This document shows, one piece after another, positions 35,055-49,855 of a stretch of DNA of 64,000 bases. Each line of letters starts with the position of its first letter. Within the stretch, counting starts at the first letter, position 1. The notes beneath the pieces are model-generated. The model made no database searches and was not told the origin of the DNA. It saw nothing but the letters and a program-made list of their open reading frames with translations. A program made the translations under genes and the position numbers. The DNA is from a virus. The stretch lies in the IMG/VR virus record IMGVR_UViG_3300040801_006072, positions 180 through 64,179 of that record, one strand, 5' to 3'.

Positions 35055-35519
35055 TTACCATTTACGACACGACCAGTATCTGGCCTTGTGCTTCGGTCCC
35101 GGATTATCGCAGTTATGTCTAGCTCTGAAACTTTTTCTTGCTTTAGGATTAGACTTTTTAATCTTCATGTCTGGATCACCAAAGTTTACCTTAACAACAT
35201 TGCCTTTGGGATTCTTCACATAAACTTTAAATTTTTTAACATCGCCTCGCATTGGCTTGTTTAGTTTAACTTTGCGTCCTTGATACTCTGCTTCGCCCAA
35301 CGATGACTCAACCTCCTCGTCTAGCAAGTCAGATTCGAAAAATACTTCCTCGACTTCTTCTAAGGTAATTTCGTCTAGTTCGTAGCCTTCTGGGACACAG
35401 TTAGGAACCTTTTTTCCGTTCTTTGTTTTGTGTCCGACCATTTGATAGCCTTTCCAGCAAGGGTCGCCGCCTTTAATTCTTTTATTTTCACCTTCATTTA
35501 AAATATCAGAAAGTCTCAT
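35055..35519 (-). CDS. conserved phage protein with PCWKGY and FRARHNC motifs (MRLSDI N-terminus)
   Basis: DPCWKGYQMVG...VPNCVP and KSFRARHNC...ARYWSCRKW, motifs I recall from T4-like/cyanophage proteins. Confidence 0.75.
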   Translation of the reverse strand: MRLSDILNEGENKRIKGGDPCWKGYQMVGHKTKNGKKVPNCVPEGYELDEITLEEVEEVFFESDLLDEEVESSLGEAEYQGRKVKLNKPMRGDVKKFKVYVKNPKGNVVKVNFGDPDMKIKKSNPKARKSFRARHNCDNPGPKHKARYWSCRKW

Positions 35520-35799
35520 CTGGATTTTCCCCTACGCACTGATTATGCTTTTCCTGCGCTTTATATTCCAATGAAGTTCTTGCGCTATCTAGATAATCTT
35601 TTGCCAGTGTAATTTTTGATTGAACCTAGCCCTCTAGACCCTCACTTTCGGGAATATCTTTAATAAGGTCATGCAAAAACTTGCTGTCTTGCTGTATGCG
35701 ATGCAAGGCAGCTTTGGCCATATGCACTTCATGATCGTCCTTTTGGTTATAAGGATTATCAATTGCCTTCTGCGGAATCTGGATTTCGTCTAATTTCAT
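35506..35799 (-). CDS. 97-aa protein with an in-frame TAG at codon 58 (readthrough candidate); missed by the ORF track
   Basis: Manual translation: MKLDEIQIPQKAIDNPYNQKDDHEVHMAKAALHRIQQDSKFLHDLIKDIPESEGLEG*VQSKITLAKDYLDSARTSLEYKAQEKHNQCVGENPDETF. It fills the 35520-35811 gap exactly and overlaps the next start. Confidence 0.8.
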
Positions 35800-39138: not shown

Positions 39139-40554
39139 TTATTCCATTCCTTTGAGAAGATTACGCAAGGCTGTTGCCTTATTTGCCGTATCTGCCGGCG
39201 TATCCTTCTCTTTATTAGGCGCTGTGGGCAGGCCGTTGCTAGGTTTCACCACGCTCTTTTGCTTGAGTGTGTCCATGATATTCTTTGTTGTAGCTTCAAC
39301 TGCGCCAGCATCGTCGTCGTCGAGATCACTTATGCGAAGTGTCTTTTGATTAAATGCTAAGTCGACCTTAGAACCTACACCTGAACTAGAACGTGTCTTC
39401 ATAAACTGTACTTGATAGCGCCCAGCTTCTTTCATCGCCATTGTTGAGAAAATTGCAATCACATTATCCGCAGTGTTCACCTTGGAAATACCTCCTGCAA
39501 TGTGACTGGCATCAAATTCTATTTCCTCAAACGATCCTCTGTTTAGCTGCGAAGCTGTAGCAAACAACACATCTAGGTCTGCTGCTAAGTTTCTAAATTC
39601 TTCCGAAACATACTTGTCCTTAATAAACTGGTCGCTTGGCGCCACTTTTACAGTGACTGGCCAACACAGGTCAAGATAGTCAACAAGGATCGCATCTGTC
39701 TTTATGCCTGTTTGCACTTCGTACTCTTTTACGTATGCTCGAATATCATTCACTGTGCTACCACTTGGCATGTACTTTAGTCGTACATTACCCTTGTGCT
39801 TTTTGTGGAAGCTCTTAACACGCATCGCAACGTCTTCGGAGTTTTTAAGTACTTCTCTAGTCTCGTATCCTGCTGTCATTGCGTCTAATCTCATGGCACA
39901 TAAGTTCTCACTAAGCTCAAGTGTTATGTAGACCACGTTTAGTCCTTCGATTGCCCAATTTATGGCTAAATTTTGCAGGAATAAGCTCTTCCCTGCTCCA
40001 GGTTGTCCCGCAAAGATTGTGATCTCTCCTCGGTTGAAACCACCATACAATTTCTTGTCTACATCGCGCCAGCCAGTGCTGAGCAGGCCGCTGTTATTCT
40101 TAATTGCCTCTAGTCGAGCTAGCGGATCTGCAAAGTAGTCTGTGCCTAGATCTTTAACCAGTCCAATCTGCACAGCTTCTTTAATCTTTGCTTCTACTTC
40201 GCCATATCTGCTTTCTTCTAGGAGATCTGGGGAACTAAGAATTGCTAGCTCTAGTGCTTTGTGTCGACAGAACTTCTCATAGGAATTCAAGAACCATTCT
40301 TTATGATTATCTGCAATTCCGGAGACTACTTCAATCTCTTTGCCAGCGACTGCCCTAATCTGCTCGATTGTCGGAAGTGCATTGTAGTCGTTTGAGTGAC
40401 TGCTCAGGAACTCAATAGTGCGCTTGTTAATTTCGCTGTTGAAATATTTTGAATCGGTAATGCCTTTGCATCTTACAAACAGTTCAGGATCACTTACCAT
40501 GAACTGTATAAAGAGATCTTCGATCTCTTTGGTATAATCTTTAATGTCTATCAT
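39139..40554 (-). CDS. replicative DnaB-like helicase (T4 gp41-like)
   Basis: Walker A AGQPGAGKS, ITLELSE, ILVDYLDL, TASQLNR and KTRSS. Confidence 0.93.
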   Translation of the reverse strand: MIDIKDYTKEIEDLFIQFMVSDPELFVRCKGITDSKYFNSEINKRTIEFLSSHSNDYNALPTIEQIRAVAGKEIEVVSGIADNHKEWFLNSYEKFCRHKALELAILSSPDLLEESRYGEVEAKIKEAVQIGLVKDLGTDYFADPLARLEAIKNNSGLLSTGWRDVDKKLYGGFNRGEITIFAGQPGAGKSLFLQNLAINWAIEGLNVVYITLELSENLCAMRLDAMTAGYETREVLKNSEDVAMRVKSFHKKHKGNVRLKYMPSGSTVNDIRAYVKEYEVQTGIKTDAILVDYLDLCWPVTVKVAPSDQFIKDKYVSEEFRNLAADLDVLFATASQLNRGSFEEIEFDASHIAGGISKVNTADNVIAIFSTMAMKEAGRYQVQFMKTRSSSGVGSKVDLAFNQKTLRISDLDDDDAGAVEATTKNIMDTLKQKSVVKPSNGLPTAPNKEKDTPADTANKATALRNLLKGME

Positions 40555-41572
40555 TCTTACTCATTTTCCATTTTAATTGTATTTTTGTCGGATTCCGTTC
40601 CGATGAGTCTATGATTGATCTTAGCGTTAATATTCTGCCATACTTTCTTGTTGCTTCTGCCGCATCTTTTATTCCATCACCCCATTCTGGAAAAGCAACT
40701 CGCCAACCCTCTTTGACTGCGATCTCAACCAGTGTGTCTCCTGCTTTGTCTCGGTCCGGACACACAATGACTTTCTTGCCTAGTGTTTTAATAATTTGTG
40801 CTTGCTCTGGATCCAAGGTATTGTGACAAGAACTTATGCCGTCGACGAAGTACGCATCAAACACACCTTCACACAGTATTACATATTCTCTTTCAAAGCC
40901 GTATTGATTGCTTAGATTATATATGTAATTTTCCGGCATACGGTTAAGATATTTGGGCACGCTCTTGTTAGGCGTTTTGCCAAAGTATCTACCAGTGTAT
41001 CCTACTATTTCACCGCGGAACCAAAACGGCAGCAACAGTCTTTTATTAAAGGTGTATTCTTTGTCTGGTGTCCAATACACATGTCGGAAATTAGTAAATC
41101 CCCTGTTCAATGCATAGTCAGCTACCTGTAGGAAATTAGGATCTGTGCATCCTTGGTCAGCCCAGTCTTGCAAGGTTCTAGAATCCTTAGGCAATGCCAT
41201 TGGTTTCCAGTTTTTAGTGATGATGCCACGAAGCTGAATGTCGTTGCTTGATTCTACTGCATTTTGTTCTTTGAACAATTCGAAGTTCAGTTTACGTATG
41301 TCGTACTGGCTAACTCCGATCTCTTTAAGGAATCGTATAAACTTCTTACTGAACGTTTGACCAGGTGACCAAACTGCATCATACCCGCAGTTGAAACAAT
41401 GGGCTGCTATTTTTCCGTCAGGAGAGAATAACACACCGAATCTGCCTCGGGTGTCTCTCGACTCACCACTCAGGTGGCACAACATACAGTTTCGTGTTAG
41501 CCAGCCTTTTCTAGATTTTTTGACTGGCCCGAGATGCTGTATGATCAGTTCTTGTAATAATTTTTGAACCAT
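40541..41572 (-). CDS. DNA primase (T4 gp61-like)
   Basis: Zn-binding CMLC...HCFNC; GYTGR; TOPRIM ILCEGVFDA and PDRDKAG. Confidence 0.9.
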   Translation of the reverse strand: MVQKLLQELIIQHLGPVKKSRKGWLTRNCMLCHLSGESRDTRGRFGVLFSPDGKIAAHCFNCGYDAVWSPGQTFSKKFIRFLKEIGVSQYDIRKLNFELFKEQNAVESSNDIQLRGIITKNWKPMALPKDSRTLQDWADQGCTDPNFLQVADYALNRGFTNFRHVYWTPDKEYTFNKRLLLPFWFRGEIVGYTGRYFGKTPNKSVPKYLNRMPENYIYNLSNQYGFEREYVILCEGVFDAYFVDGISSCHNTLDPEQAQIIKTLGKKVIVCPDRDKAGDTLVEIAVKEGWRVAFPEWGDGIKDAAEATRKYGRILTLRSIIDSSERNPTKIQLKWKMSKNDRH

Positions 41573-42577: not shown

Positions 42578-42946
42578 GTGGATATTACAGAAGTACAAGA
42601 AAAGTTCCCGTTCCTAACCGGTCTGAAATACCAAGATCGGGAATTCCTCTGCATCATACAAAATCATAGTGACAAGATCATGAGCTTCTATGATTTCAAT
42701 CAAATCTCCACATCAGCAGAAAAACAACTGTTTTTAGACTATGGCGATACATGGTGGTGGGAATCGAACAGACTTCTGCCTATCAATATCTTCCTAACAG
42801 GAAAAATGGCTCACTTCAGGTACTGCTTAAAAACAGTAGCAATGAAAGATGTAGAAATTCTGTTCGGTCCCACAACAAGTCTTAATAACCTAATGAAGAA
42901 AAGAATCAAAAAGCGTCAGATTCAACTCGTTAGGAAATCCGATTAA
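42578..42946 (+). CDS. hypothetical protein; the only convincing plus-strand gene
   Basis: EKFPFLTGL...YGDTWWWESNRLLPINIFL; fills an otherwise empty gap; ATAAATA on the plus strand just upstream. Confidence 0.75.
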   Translation: MDITEVQEKFPFLTGLKYQDREFLCIIQNHSDKIMSFYDFNQISTSAEKQLFLDYGDTWWWESNRLLPINIFLTGKMAHFRYCLKTVAMKDVEILFGPTTSLNNLMKKRIKKRQIQLVRKSD

Positions 42947-43626
42947 ATCTTCTTTCCTTTTAGCACATCCTTTAACACCAACTTATTATTTGTAGAATGA
43001 ACCAATACCGTGTTGTCCTTCTCACGGTAAGTTTTGATCTTATCTCCACGCATACCCGATCCTGCTAGATCTTTGCACATTGCTTTCTCTTCGCAGCGCC
43101 GAATTGACTCGTAATGTTCGCGAACACGCTCTTCTAACAAACGCCTAGCTTCGGTGCGATTATAGTGCTGGCACTTCTTTGCGCTTTTCGCTTCAATGCC
43201 CGTTGGCAAATGTCGCATGACGACACAGCTTTCAGTTTTGTTGCGATGTTGGCCGCCTGGGCCAGAATCTTTAGTTGTGAATGTTTCTATGTCACTATCA
43301 TGTAACTCGTAGTTCACAACATCTTGTTTCTTACGAGCAACCACAGTCACAGTAGAAGTGTGCACACGACCACGAGTTTCCGTAGGTGGGACTCTTTGCC
43401 AGCGATGGCCGCCGGATTCATTCAGTAAGGGTTGTAGGTTTTTCTCTTTACCAGAACAGCAAAGAGTAATGGAATTTCAGCCGCAGGCTGCTCGAGACTC
43501 AGCAATGGTCTCTACGTGAAGATTGTGCTTGGCACAGTAATTTTGATAAATCGATGCTTGCTTCTCTACTAATAGCTTTGCATCATCGCCGCCTTCGGCA
43601 GCTCTAATTTCAAGTAGTAATTTCAT
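42943..43626 (-). CDS. truncated RF1-type peptide chain release factor with an in-frame TGA at codon 50
   Basis: MKLLLEIRAAEGGDDAKLL...AACG*NSITLCCSG...NESGGHRWQRVPPTETRGRVHTS...SGPGGQHRNKTESCV. GGAGG RBS before the ATG at 43626; TGA at 43479-43477. Confidence 0.88.
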
Positions 43627-43643
43627 AGTTATTACCTCCGTAC

Positions 43644-43651: not shown

Positions 43652-43936
43652 CTACGCGGACTCTAGGCCTAAGTCTAGCAATGCTTTCCTCGTTACATCT
43701 TCAAGTCTCATAATAGACAGAAAACATTCTACTGCATCTTCATAATCGCTAAACCAAGTTTCCATGCCGCTGTCGTCAAGGCCCCAGGCACACACCACAT
43801 ACTCTTTTGTAACTGGGCTTTGGTCTAAGGACACTTCGACATATTGGTCAAGATCAGAACACTTGATCGAAGGATACCAATCTTCGGACGTCCTCTTAAG
43901 ACAATTAAAAGTTTTCATATGCATTTGCCTGTTCAA
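43652..43936 (-). CDS. hypothetical protein
   Basis: ~90-aa ORF ending TAG. Confidence 0.6.
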   Translation of the reverse strand: MNRQMHMKTFNCLKRTSEDWYPSIKCSDLDQYVEVSLDQSPVTKEYVVCAWGLDDSGMETWFSDYEDAVECFLSIMRLEDVTRKALLDLGLESA

Positions 43937-44495
43937 GTAATAGATTCATTTGGACCACAATGCTGAGTGCATATGCAACAGAGTGGCTCTTTTTAAAATG
44001 GTACGATCCGTCGGCAGGTTTGTCCCACACGGTCTCGGAAATCACCTCCCATGGCTTATTTTGCAGGTGCGCTTTGGACGGGCGAATAATCGCAAGCAAC
44101 ATTGCTAACTGCTCGACGGATCGTGGTTTGTGAGCTTTCACCAAACGATAATAGTCGCCAATGTGAAATAGCTCTTTTACAATTTCTTCTACCTCTAGCA
44201 AAGTCCAATCTGGTTCTTTGCTTAGTAATTTGTCTAAGTGTGCTTCGTTGCGCACATCCTCGTAGATACTAACATTAAGACAATCAATTTTAAAATACCC
44301 CAACAGTTCGGCATCTTTGTAATCAATATTAGCTTGATTGGTAAATGGATCTTTCGGAATGTTCTGCAAATAGATTCCTGTTTTGTGCTTCTCCATTTCC
44401 TTGCGGCGCTGAATACTTGCGTCGGCAAAACGCAAACCCTGCAGAGCACGATCACGATCTGCAAAATCGATATCTACGTCTGCTTGAATTATCAT
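43905..44495 (-). CDS. minimal DnaE (C-family DNA polymerase) palm-like protein
   Basis: ADVDIDF (cf. DnaE PDFDVDF), KHKTGIYL, GYFKIDCL (cf. GLVKFDFL), LAIIRP and FKKSHSVAYA. Confidence 0.8.
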   Translation of the reverse strand: MIIQADVDIDFADRDRALQGLRFADASIQRRKEMEKHKTGIYLQNIPKDPFTNQANIDYKDAELLGYFKIDCLNVSIYEDVRNEAHLDKLLSKEPDWTLLEVEEIVKELFHIGDYYRLVKAHKPRSVEQLAMLLAIIRPSKAHLQNKPWEVISETVWDKPADGSYHFKKSHSVAYALSIVVQMNLLLEQANAYENF

Positions 44496-46386: not shown

Positions 46387-46677
46387 TTATCTTGTCGTCG
46401 CTTCGTGTGAATAGTGTTCTAGGTGCTCTTTAAAATCCATTCCGCTCCTGAGACGAATCAGCATTTCTGCCTGATCCATTTCATCATCCCATTCGAGATA
46501 CACAGCTAAGAATCTCGACTCAAGTAGATCAGGACAAATCTCGTCGTAATGGCCTATAGCAAAAGCTTTATTCGGAAATATAATTTCCAGAATGTCTTGA
46601 ATTAGGCGGAAATCTAAAACACTTATTTTTGTTAAAATTTCTCGTGGATTGTCGAGTTCGTGTTTTTCAACCAGCAT
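46387..46677 (-). CDS. hypothetical protein
   Basis: 96-aa coupled ORF. Confidence 0.6.
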   Translation of the reverse strand: MLVEKHELDNPREILTKISVLDFRLIQDILEIIFPNKAFAIGHYDEICPDLLESRFLAVYLEWDDEMDQAEMLIRLRSGMDFKEHLEHYSHEATTR

Positions 46678-48110
46678 CAGTAATTTAGCTTATGTACCTT
46701 GTGAGGATACCCTGCTTCCTTGTAGTGTTTCTTTCTTTTTGTTAGGTGTCGTTTTGCATACTTACAACTAGACGTGATGTCGTATACGTTTACGAAGTCT
46801 TTGTCTTCTGCTACACGAAGTCCTCGACCAATCGACTGTATCACTCTCACAAAACTTTTCCCGGGCTCAATCAACACGAGATTAAAAATACGGTTGATGT
46901 TAATTCCAGTAGATGCAACACCGTATGTAGCAATGATCAACTTATTATCTTCGAACTGTACAGATTTGTATTCTTCCTTCCTATCAGTGGATTTTACTTT
47001 ACCACTAATAAATACCCCGCCCAAATGCTCTTCGAGCATTTCACCGGTTTGCACACGATCAACAAGAACCAATGTGTTTCCTTGTTGTGCTAGTCCAGAG
47101 ATCTTATCTGCAATAAATTCAATTCTGTCGCTACAGGTAGTGAGCCATTTTAGCTCTGCTTGATAGTTATTAAAGCCGCCAGGATCCTGTAGCTGCCAAA
47201 TATCAATATGGCAATTAGCAAGGTATCCTTTTTCTTGCAGATCTGAGGCTTTAATTTCGCCTGCTGTAGGACCAATACATGCCAACACACCTACCTTTTC
47301 GTATTCTTCTTCGGGCAGTGTTCCAGTTAGTCCCCAACGGATCGGACAATGCGCAAACTCTTGGCTTAGTAGTCGCTTCAGTACATCTGCTTTTGCTTTG
47401 TGAACTTCGTCTACTATCACTGCTGCCACACCGTCTGTCATTGCGTCGATAGAGCCATCTCTTTTCTTTTTCAGTACTTCTAGGCTTTGCCATGTGCAAA
47501 TGGTATGAGTGTGCCCTACTTCTTTTCTATCTCCGTAATACACACCTACATCAAGCCCAAAGTTAATGTAATCTTCTTCTGTTTGTGTAACTAGATCCTT
47601 AGTAGGAACAATAACCACACTGCGACCGTATTGCTCGACTTTGTGCGACAGGATAGCAGTAATAATTGTCTTGCCGCCAGCAGTGGGGCAAATGTTAACT
47701 GACTGTGTTTCCTGTAAAGAACTGTTAATGACGCCGACTTGATAGTCTCTTAGCACAACAGGCTGGCCAGCTAGCGGGTGTCCTTCGGGCCACTTAACAT
47801 GACTGTAACTGTTTTCGTCTACTTCTTGAAACTCGAAGCTGTAGTGTGTCCTTCGGTCATCAAGTTCAATGTCATAACCAGCAGAATATACGATCGGCAA
47901 TATGCGATCTAAAAGATTGATATAGGTTCGACCACCAGTGTCACAGAATGTAATATTTCCATTCCATCGGCCTAATTTATAGGCCGGAGTATGCCTAGCA
48001 TACGGAAGGAAGTAAGTAAGTTCTTTTACGATTTTTCTGCGAGTTTCTACATCTAAATTGCTTAGACGGCAGTTGACTTCATCCTTGATTTCTAGAATAC
48101 ACTGCTTCAT
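46677..48110 (-). CDS. uvsW: SF2 DNA helicase (UvsW-like)
   Basis: LRDYQ, PTAGGKT, VIVDEVH, GLTGT and QSIGRGLR; start moved to ATG at 48110, downstream of the promoter. Confidence 0.92.
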   Translation of the reverse strand: MKQCILEIKDEVNCRLSNLDVETRRKIVKELTYFLPYARHTPAYKLGRWNGNITFCDTGGRTYINLLDRILPIVYSAGYDIELDDRRTHYSFEFQEVDENSYSHVKWPEGHPLAGQPVVLRDYQVGVINSSLQETQSVNICPTAGGKTIITAILSHKVEQYGRSVVIVPTKDLVTQTEEDYINFGLDVGVYYGDRKEVGHTHTICTWQSLEVLKKKRDGSIDAMTDGVAAVIVDEVHKAKADVLKRLLSQEFAHCPIRWGLTGTLPEEEYEKVGVLACIGPTAGEIKASDLQEKGYLANCHIDIWQLQDPGGFNNYQAELKWLTTCSDRIEFIADKISGLAQQGNTLVLVDRVQTGEMLEEHLGGVFISGKVKSTDRKEEYKSVQFEDNKLIIATYGVASTGININRIFNLVLIEPGKSFVRVIQSIGRGLRVAEDKDFVNVYDITSSCKYAKRHLTKRKKHYKEAGYPHKVHKLNY

Positions 48111-48126
48111 AAAATCCTTTTTGCTT

Positions 48127-48155
48127 ATTATAATGCCAGCGTTCCATGCTGTCAA
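48127..48155 (-). promoter_or_regulatory. perfect sigma70 consensus promoter for uvsW
   Basis: TTGACA-17 nt-TATAAT. Confidence 0.85.
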
Positions 48156-48157
48156 GA

Positions 48158-48183
48158 GAAACGTGGCCCGAAAGCCACGTTTC
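48158..48183 (-). terminator. hairpin, likely terminator, after the accessory island
   Basis: GAAACGTGGC / GCCACGTTTC 10-bp stem with a TTTCGG loop; weak T-tail. Confidence 0.6.
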
Positions 48184-48192
48184 ATTCTTTTG

Positions 48193-49703: not shown

Positions 49704-49732
49704 ACAGTAGCAATATTTAGCTTCGATGTCAA
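49704..49732 (-). promoter_or_regulatory. sigma70-type promoter downstream of the tRNA
   Basis: TTGACA-17 nt-TACTGT. Confidence 0.6.
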
Positions 49733-49740
49733 CCTATGTT

Positions 49741-49816
49741 TGGTGCTCCGGGTGGGACTCGAACCCACGACCGGCGGTTTTAGAGGCCGCTGCTCTGCCA
49801 ACTGAGCTACCGGAAC
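49741..49816 (-). tRNA. amber suppressor tRNA (anticodon CUA), Trp-like anticodon arm
   Basis: GTTCCGG TA GCTC AGTTGGCA GAGC A GCGGC CT CTA AA ACCGC CGGTC GTGGG TTCGAGT CCCAC CCGGAGC A CCA; 76 nt, encoded CCA, C31-A39 mismatch. Confidence 0.93.
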
Positions 49817-49826
49817 GTATGTAGCT

Positions 49827-49855
49827 ATAGTAGCAATATTGCTCTTCGTTGTCAA
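49827..49855 (-). promoter_or_regulatory. sigma70-type promoter for the suppressor tRNA
   Basis: TTGACA-17 nt-TACTAT, ending 11 nt before the tRNA 5' end. Confidence 0.8.

Follow-up and report, generated by a model that had tools for sequence, protein, structure and literature searches.

A phage RF1-type release factor gene likely to be completed only when an in-frame UGA is decoded as sense

The closest described system to the gene analysed here is the autoregulation of prfB, which encodes release factor 2 (RF2). In prfB, a class-I release factor is completed only if termination at an early UGA fails, within a cassette of the form SD-N3-CUU UGA C (SD, Shine-Dalgarno sequence); the frameshift site is codon 26. 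Our gene lies on the minus strand at positions 42943-43626 of a 64,000-nucleotide stretch of viral DNA (hereafter the window; positions 180 to 64,179 of the IMG/VR record IMGVR_UViG_3300040801_006072) and encodes a short relative of bacterial release factor 1 (RF1) in a frame of 227 codons plus TAA, interrupted once by an in-frame TGA at codon 50. Judging from the sequence, this is likely a functional phage release factor gene whose full-length product would be made only by sense decoding of that UGA. Relatives in the same clade carry the prfB heptamer, CTT TGA C, with an SD-like stretch, whereas the UGA in the window is in frame (GGC TGA A) and lacks the CUU slip codon, which points to readthrough and not to frameshifting. 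The window gate also lies in domain 2, whereas that of prfB lies in domain 1. Because the window product is of RF1 type (PPT motif) and should not read UGA, the loop would be cross-regulatory and not autoregulatory.

A survey published in 2025, spanning over 12,000 genomes, reported programmed frameshifting for prfB but not for prfA, the gene for RF1, for which it found only scattered pseudogenes (PMC12421855), and in a review of release-factor evolution the words phage and frameshift are absent (PMC6514570). Recoding control of a bacterial-type release factor is so far established only for RF2. Our full-text literature search, which had incomplete coverage, found no description of the short RF1 family or of its gates. 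Bacterial RF1 has domains 2-4, a PxT-type motif, GGQ and the fold in common with the window protein, which differs in being phage-borne, in having no domain 1 (about 110 residues) and in having its frame broken by UGA. PrfH (RFH), the RtcB-linked ribosome rescue factor, is likewise a class-I release factor paralogue without domain 1. In phage Q-beta, UGA readthrough extends the coat protein into the A1 protein, with Trp inserted by tRNA-Trp. There too a phage product relies on low-level tRNA-Trp decoding of a leaky UGA, but readthrough extends the C-terminus of an already functional protein; the window stop lies inside a domain, which leaves the read-through product as the only possible release factor. 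Autoregulation of plant eRF1 by stop-codon readthrough acts via nonsense-mediated decay (PMC5397192). It also ties the expression of a termination factor to termination efficiency at a stop in its own mRNA, although the plant system is eukaryotic and autoregulatory, whereas the window stop is specific for the other release factor. Finally, the code-change modules of stop-codon-recoded phages comprise a suppressor tRNA, an aminoacyl-tRNA synthetase, RF1 or RF2, and the RF1 of the TGA-recoded Jade phages belongs to such a module written in the standard code (Borges et al. preprint). These modules place phage release factors beside tRNA genes, and the window too has a tRNA of the amber-suppressor type. 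However, they are described without internal stops and for phages with recoded late genes, whereas TGA is not recoded in the window.

The window is part of a 69-kb record estimated to represent about 19% of a genome; its sequence was found in microbial-mat metagenomes, nearly all of its genes are on the minus strand, and the record remains phage-like over its last 5 kb. The initial annotation, made from the letters alone, had proposed a 227-codon frame with one TGA and no need for a frameshift, and translation agrees on both counts: the two halves share one frame, and homology continues in frame 0 beyond GGC TGA AAT into ...PLLNESGGHRWQRVPPTETRGRVHTS. The +1 and -1 frames reach stops within about 20 codons of the TGA. 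Because both close this fast and the homology stays in frame 0, we rejected frameshift rescue of the window gene, which also has no CUU UGA N slip site with a +1 downstream frame as in prfB-type cassettes. No second lesion was found in the 227 codons. Termination at the TGA leaves a default product of 49 amino acids (codons 1-49).

The read-through product matched the Pfam families PCRF (82.4 bits against a cut-off of 24, over model positions 102-194 only) and RF-1 (65.4 bits against 35), both above threshold. In NCBIfam it ranked as prfA (182 bits), then prfB (103) and prfH (72), all under cut-off. Scores against the prfA equivalogs were 182.5 bits for NF001859 (cut-off 400) and 172 for TIGR00019 (cut-off 423), with matches spanning model positions 106-330 only; they fall below the cut-offs because the first ~105 positions, corresponding to domain 1, are missing. 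Alignment with HMMER placed the protein on residues 112-336 of the 360 of E. coli RF1, again without domain 1, and put the TGA column on the Tyr of GGYKE, the position that the initial annotation had assigned to it (the Tyr of GGYKEI). The motifs listed there, namely the N-terminal EIRAAEGGDDAKLL, the PPTETRGRVHTS block and GPGGQ, are all present. Since the 94-amino-acid open reading frame (ORF) upstream had no PCRF or release-factor match, domain 1 is not supplied by a separate gene.

The RF1-type PxT tripeptide and its flanking QRVP.TE..GR.HTS block are present as WQRVPPTETRGRVHTS, instead of the SPF motif of RF2. In the family alignments, P80, P81 and T82 are invariant or nearly so and G124, G125 and Q126 are invariant; the window protein keeps every invariant column of the family. 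An AlphaFold model built with 54 family sequences (pLDDT 93.7, pTM 0.83) put the stop inside the compact domain 2, where a strand begins right behind a beta-hairpin turn. The top Foldseek matches were ribosome-bound RF1 chains (TM 0.85-0.90 over the query), with RF2 ranking lower, and we are confident that the predicted structure is the RF1 fold in its open, ribosome-bound form. The window protein has all the elements that RF1 uses for UAA/UAG reading and peptidyl-tRNA hydrolysis, minus domain 1. The read-through product may thus act as an auxiliary UAA/UAG terminator for phage translation; the 81 long ORFs of the window end in TAA (57), TAG (9) or TGA (15).

The likeness to PrfH noted in the initial annotation goes no further than the missing domain 1. 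The protein scored 72.1 bits against the TIGR03072 cut-off of 166.65, the RF1-type decoding motifs are retained, and a search of the 69-kb record (~19% of the genome) found no RtcB partner; on these three grounds we rejected PrfH identity. An ArfB-type rescue factor was also rejected, as that match was confined to residues 105-138 (26 bits) and domains 2 and 4 are present.

The gene with its TGA is 100% identical in two other assemblies of metagenomes from the Joint Genome Institute (JGI; L248 and L249), with 1-2 base differences from the window in the flanks, and Logan contigs from two runs of one microbial-mat sample span codon 50 without any difference from the window; since these samples may be kin to the source of the window, the agreement shows reproducibility and not full independence. 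A single-protein query of IMG/VR did not find close relatives, but an alignment-based scan retrieved 317, and 76 of the best 80 were scored for gate type; hits in genomes numbered 581. In-frame stops occur in 59 of the 76, one or two per gene and within the first ~57 codons. Another 15 need a +1 shift, for which the site is CTT TGA N in 14 and CTT TAG G in one; a GGAGG or GGGGG-like stretch usually lies 3 nt upstream of the CTT-stop. Only two of the 76 are uninterrupted. Three more relatives, fetched from assemblies, all have CTT TGA C, one of them as the exact CGGGGGCAT CTT TGA C. The prfB-type +1 cassette, though absent from the window, is thus present in 18 relatives, in which the shift fuses the N-terminal and C-terminal parts. 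Family members also occur in cultured bacteria, with CTT TGA C in Thiobacillus denitrificans DSM 12475 (L131) and CTT TAG C in Archangium gephyra SDU49 (L159); both could serve for experiments.

Gates cluster at two places, site 1 (about codon 36), which is the conserved Trp of RF1 ...ARRW, and site 2 (codons 45-50), the Tyr of GGYKE, where the window gene is gated. In a maximum-likelihood tree, the window gene belongs to a clade of 15 genes (support 98/94) that are all gated at site 2, ten by an in-frame TGA, four by CTT TGA C and one by an in-frame TAG. It follows from this mixture that readthrough-type and frameshift-type gates interconvert at one site; the tree requires at least 4 changes of the TGA-readthrough label, with 7 the most parsimonious number.

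The stop is therefore not unique to one assembly: ten viral relatives with 47-59% identity have a stop in the same column, and four more members of the clade have CTT TGA C. The two halves are not drifting neutrally either. The ratio of nonsynonymous to synonymous substitution rates (dN/dS) upstream of the stop has a median of 0.15 over 796 pairs and is 0.15-0.23 within the window's group, which indicates purifying selection, and every invariant family column is kept. The in-frame stop is thus kept among diverged homologues while the sequence on either side of it stays under coding constraint, as expected of programmed readthrough. Intact homologues have Trp or Phe at the stop column. In protein databases the gene is mostly called as a C-terminal piece of 160-200 amino acids plus an upstream ORF of 46-49 amino acids.

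We collected 64 internal in-frame stops from 60 genes, window included; as these are related sequences, they are not independent events. The stops comprise 62 TGA, two TAG and no TAA. The preceding codon encodes Gly in 49 of the 64 (GGC 34, GGT 13, GGA 2). In older work on E. coli, termination by RF2 was weaker after a small final residue, Gly for instance. The base after the stop is A in 44 cases, C in 16, G in four and never T, whereas T follows 39 of the 81 true long-ORF ends in the window. A U at this +4 position is known to enhance termination (PMC5289835). The Gly-UGA-A context is of the leaky type, and the window, with GGC TGA A, matches the family pattern.

These data bear on two explanations in which no readthrough takes place. 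A decaying gene that has recently mutated from TGG to TGA, or an assembly error, would suit the intact state of the closest database homologues, which have Trp at the stop column, and the long branch of the window gene. It is hard to reconcile with a TGA that is identical in other assemblies and kept at the same column across diverged relatives, with the retention of all invariant family residues and the lack of a second lesion in 227 codons, and with a leaky-context signature common to the family; we regard it as largely refuted and a most improbable explanation. Gene callers do cut the gene in two (P0002; a 49-amino-acid ORF in L249), as would be expected if the 49-amino-acid N-terminal peptide alone, or a C-terminal fragment with an internal start, were functional without readthrough. 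However, no gene of the window's group has ATG, GTG or TTG directly behind the stop, and the first such codon past the window TGA, a GTG at codon 88, comes after the PPT motif, so that a start there would remove the decoding motif. The stop, moreover, is predicted to lie at a beta-hairpin turn within one compact domain, and the frameshift relatives fuse both parts. Such a split or truncated function is very unlikely. The stop looks like a built-in gate on protein synthesis and not like damage.

In the mechanism that we propose, near-cognate Trp-tRNA(CCA) would read the UGA at codon 50 in competition with RF2, and Trp would be inserted, as in the intact homologues. Most initiations would stop at the 49-amino-acid peptide, and the yield of full-length factor would go up when RF2 activity at UGA drops or tRNA-Trp rises. 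The standard code and the lack of any dedicated suppressor among the tRNAs found make near-cognate decoding by tRNA-Trp the simplest mechanism, and tRNA-Trp is probably the decoder. ORFs of at least 100 codons in the standard code cover 0.96 of the window, and 15 long ORFs stop at TGA. We rejected a TGA-recoded (code 4-like) genome for the window and likewise for G008 and G009, two relatives scanned whole in which the standard code reads well; ORF coverage on the 5.6-kb loci was too noisy for judging the other relatives one by one. ARAGORN and Rfam located a single tRNA, which has the anticodon CUA and lies in the window; the other 5 kb of the record gave none. The 69-kb record thus has no tRNA(UCA) that these searches could find, nor did any occur in the Rfam-located tRNA regions of five site-2 relatives (7-50 tRNAs each; four at least 92% complete), in two complete ~360-kb site-1 relatives scanned whole (45 tRNAs each) or among the tRNAs flanking 56 of 83 loci. 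Six of the seven relatives have one or two genes for tRNA-Trp(CCA); in the relative with only seven tRNAs (G003), such a gene is ~1.3 kb away from that of the release factor. The extent of UGA readthrough in E. coli depends mainly on how the Trp-tRNA-Trp ternary complex competes with RF2, and overexpression of tRNA-Trp raises it (PMC10570021).

The tRNA genes of the relatives also bear on a different explanation, in which the unseen 81% of the genome would encode a UGA-reading suppressor tRNA or a modified tRNA-Trp and the RF1-type factor would be made only once that tRNA appears, as has been proposed for the modules of TGA-recoded phages. In Jade phages, RF1 is accompanied by TrpRS and a suppressor tRNA for TGA (Borges et al. 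preprint). Of 83 relatives (L002-L085), 56 have tRNA genes no more than 2.5 kb from the short RF1 gene, which often sits inside an array of 10-27 tRNAs (for example L002, L003, L062 and L065). The relatives' one or two tRNA-Trp(CCA) copies have in some cases (L119, L122, L127; G001, G002, G004) a non-Watson-Crick 31:39 pair, C-A or A-C, and a variant tRNA-Trp(CCA) able to read UGA has been published (PMC13092985). That variant, however, unpairs 27:43 and not 31:39, and we draw no conclusion about a Hirsh-type or 4-bp anticodon-stem tRNA-Trp in the relatives. The search for tRNA(UCA) was negative in every set of sequences listed above, and the window and both whole relatives fit the standard code, with TGA closing long ORFs of the window itself. 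A genetic-code switch is thus improbable. Near one short RF1 gene with two in-frame TGAs, at a distance of ~1.5 kb, ARAGORN called a tRNA with a four-base anticodon (CCUA; L016:987-1063).

The gate is nearly always a codon specific to RF2, and relatives use the prfB cassette; for these reasons the output of the gene should rise when RF2 is limiting or tRNA-Trp abundant. Both the 62 TGA among the 64 stops and the prfB-type cassettes of the relatives would fit a gate that depends on RF2. What the gate is for we can only infer: selection for RF2 sensing and selection for a low dose would both fit the sequence. If the stop were a mere throttle, constitutive low readthrough would limit a possibly toxic extra release factor without any RF2 sensing, holding the dose to a few per cent of the output of the strong GGAGG ribosome-binding site that the gene has. 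Overexpression of release factors lowers the fitness of B. subtilis (PMC12421855), TGA is the leakiest stop and one mutation away from the Trp codon of the intact homologues, and the search for a conserved stimulatory structure was negative. The same could nevertheless be had more simply from a weak ribosome-binding site, and relatives of the same clade carry the full prfB cassette, which is known for RF2-dependent switching. Readthrough in competition with RF2 is, moreover, unavoidably RF2-dependent, and the difference lies in the selected purpose and not in the physics. We consider a mere throttle possible but unlikely.

A functional gene completed by sense decoding of its UGA, with readthrough acting as a gate as the initial annotation had suggested, is supported in its main point by the family-wide stop, by the context of the stop and by the equivalent frameshift gates. 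Several observations weigh against it. About 19 of the 120 best protein-database matches are intact and full-length, including the closest relatives of this gene (53-59% identity); some lineages can therefore do without the gate. The branch of the window gene is long (0.76), and its nearest relatives reach no more than 59% identity. The preference for TGA would be equally expected from a mere throttle, UGA being the leakiest stop and one step from TGG. A conserved RNA stimulator past the stop is unsupported: the window hairpin (-9.7 kcal/mol, z -2.3 on a 60-nt window), a possible readthrough stimulator, is not conserved, the 121-nt context of the stop has a z of -0.14, and the relatives show no clear excess of structure over upstream controls (median z -1.33 downstream of the stop versus -1.09 upstream, a marginal and non-specific difference). 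A tRNA(UCA) could lie in the ~81% of the phage genome beyond the record. Finally, we found no RNA runs with the sequence of the gene.

The features of the gene are listed in Table 1.

Table 1. Features of the interrupted release factor gene, in window coordinates
Feature	Coordinates	Strand	Basis
Whole recoded gene, domain-1-less RF1-type release factor (predicted)	42943..43626	-	translation; Pfam PCRF 5e-23, RF-1 5.7e-18
Shine-Dalgarno GGAGG, 8 nt 5' of ATG (43624-43626)	43635..43639	-	read from sequence
Codons 1-49, start of release factor domain 2, with alpha-5 tip motif EGGDDA	43480..43626	-	translation, RF1 alignment
In-frame TGA, codon 50; Gly GGC before (43480-43482), A after (43476)	43477..43479	-	sequence
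Local hairpin, 9-bp stem and 5-nt loop as folded, beginning 11 nt past TGA	43444..43466	-	folding
PPT tripeptide (RF1-type PxT stop-codon 'anticodon' motif), residues 80-82	43381..43389	-	translation, family alignment
GGQ peptidyl-tRNA hydrolysis motif, residues 124-126	43249..43257	-	translation, family alignment
Codons 51-227 and TAA: remainder of domain 2, domains 3 and 4	42943..43476	-	translation, predicted structure

Whereas family members typically lie in tRNA islands of phages, the neighbours of the window gene are replication genes, with a DnaB-type helicase at 39139-40554, a primase-like gene at 40541-41572 and a helicase at 46677-48185. A T4-type late promoter sequence, TATAAATA, lies just 5' of the gene, but it occurs three times in the window against 2.9 expected and is not evidence. 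The only similarity of the region to known phages at the DNA level (65-71%, to the Pseudomonas phage PA5oct group) is in an ORF of 196 amino acids at 43905-44495 (minus strand); the matching gene is called DNA polymerase or DNA polymerase III alpha in some records of that group, and the ORF had no match in a Pfam search.

The lone tRNA of the window (49741-49816, minus strand) is 76 nt long, with the amber-suppressor-type anticodon CUA and an encoded CCA end; ARAGORN labels it 'Pyl' and it scored 63 bits with the Rfam tRNA model. Its 31:39 pair reads as a C-A mismatch, as in some tRNA-Trp copies of the relatives. Two near-identical sigma-70-like promoter sequences, TTGACA-N18-TACTRT, bracket it at 49827-49855 and 49704-49732 (minus strand; two matches, where 0.10 would be expected). 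Five of seven short-RF1 relatives (G001, G002, G005, G008 and G009) likewise have a solitary tRNA(CUA) outside their main tRNA arrays. Elsewhere in the window, a 290-bp gap between called ORFs (35506-35799, minus strand) contains a frame of 97 codons with one in-frame TAG, at codon 58, that follows a Gly codon (...EGLEG*VQSK...). We found no homologue or paralogue of this candidate frame; if it is a real gene, the tRNA(CUA) would have a substrate in it.

It is conceivable, though doubtful, that the UGA gate, the tRNA(CUA) 6 kb away and the candidate TAG-interrupted gene form one phage stop-codon control circuit. If they did, the amount of the RF1-type factor would depend on RF2 activity or on the phage's tRNA-Trp level, this factor would tune UAG/UAA termination against the phage's own suppressor tRNA, and stop-interrupted genes would be timed without a change of the genetic code.

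The window thus offers a phage RF1-type gene that would be completable only by reading through UGA, in a gate design that is widespread in large phages and mobile elements, where the same site holds either a UGA or a full prfB CUU-UGA cassette. Because gene callers split or truncate these genes, phage release factors are under-counted. The family is also a set of natural leaky-UGA contexts (Gly-UGA-A/C), and the member in the cultured Thiobacillus denitrificans DSM 12475 makes experiments feasible. The window gene would provide a natural and directly testable case of cross-talk between the two termination pathways, in which a stop read by RF2 controls the synthesis of an RF1-type factor.

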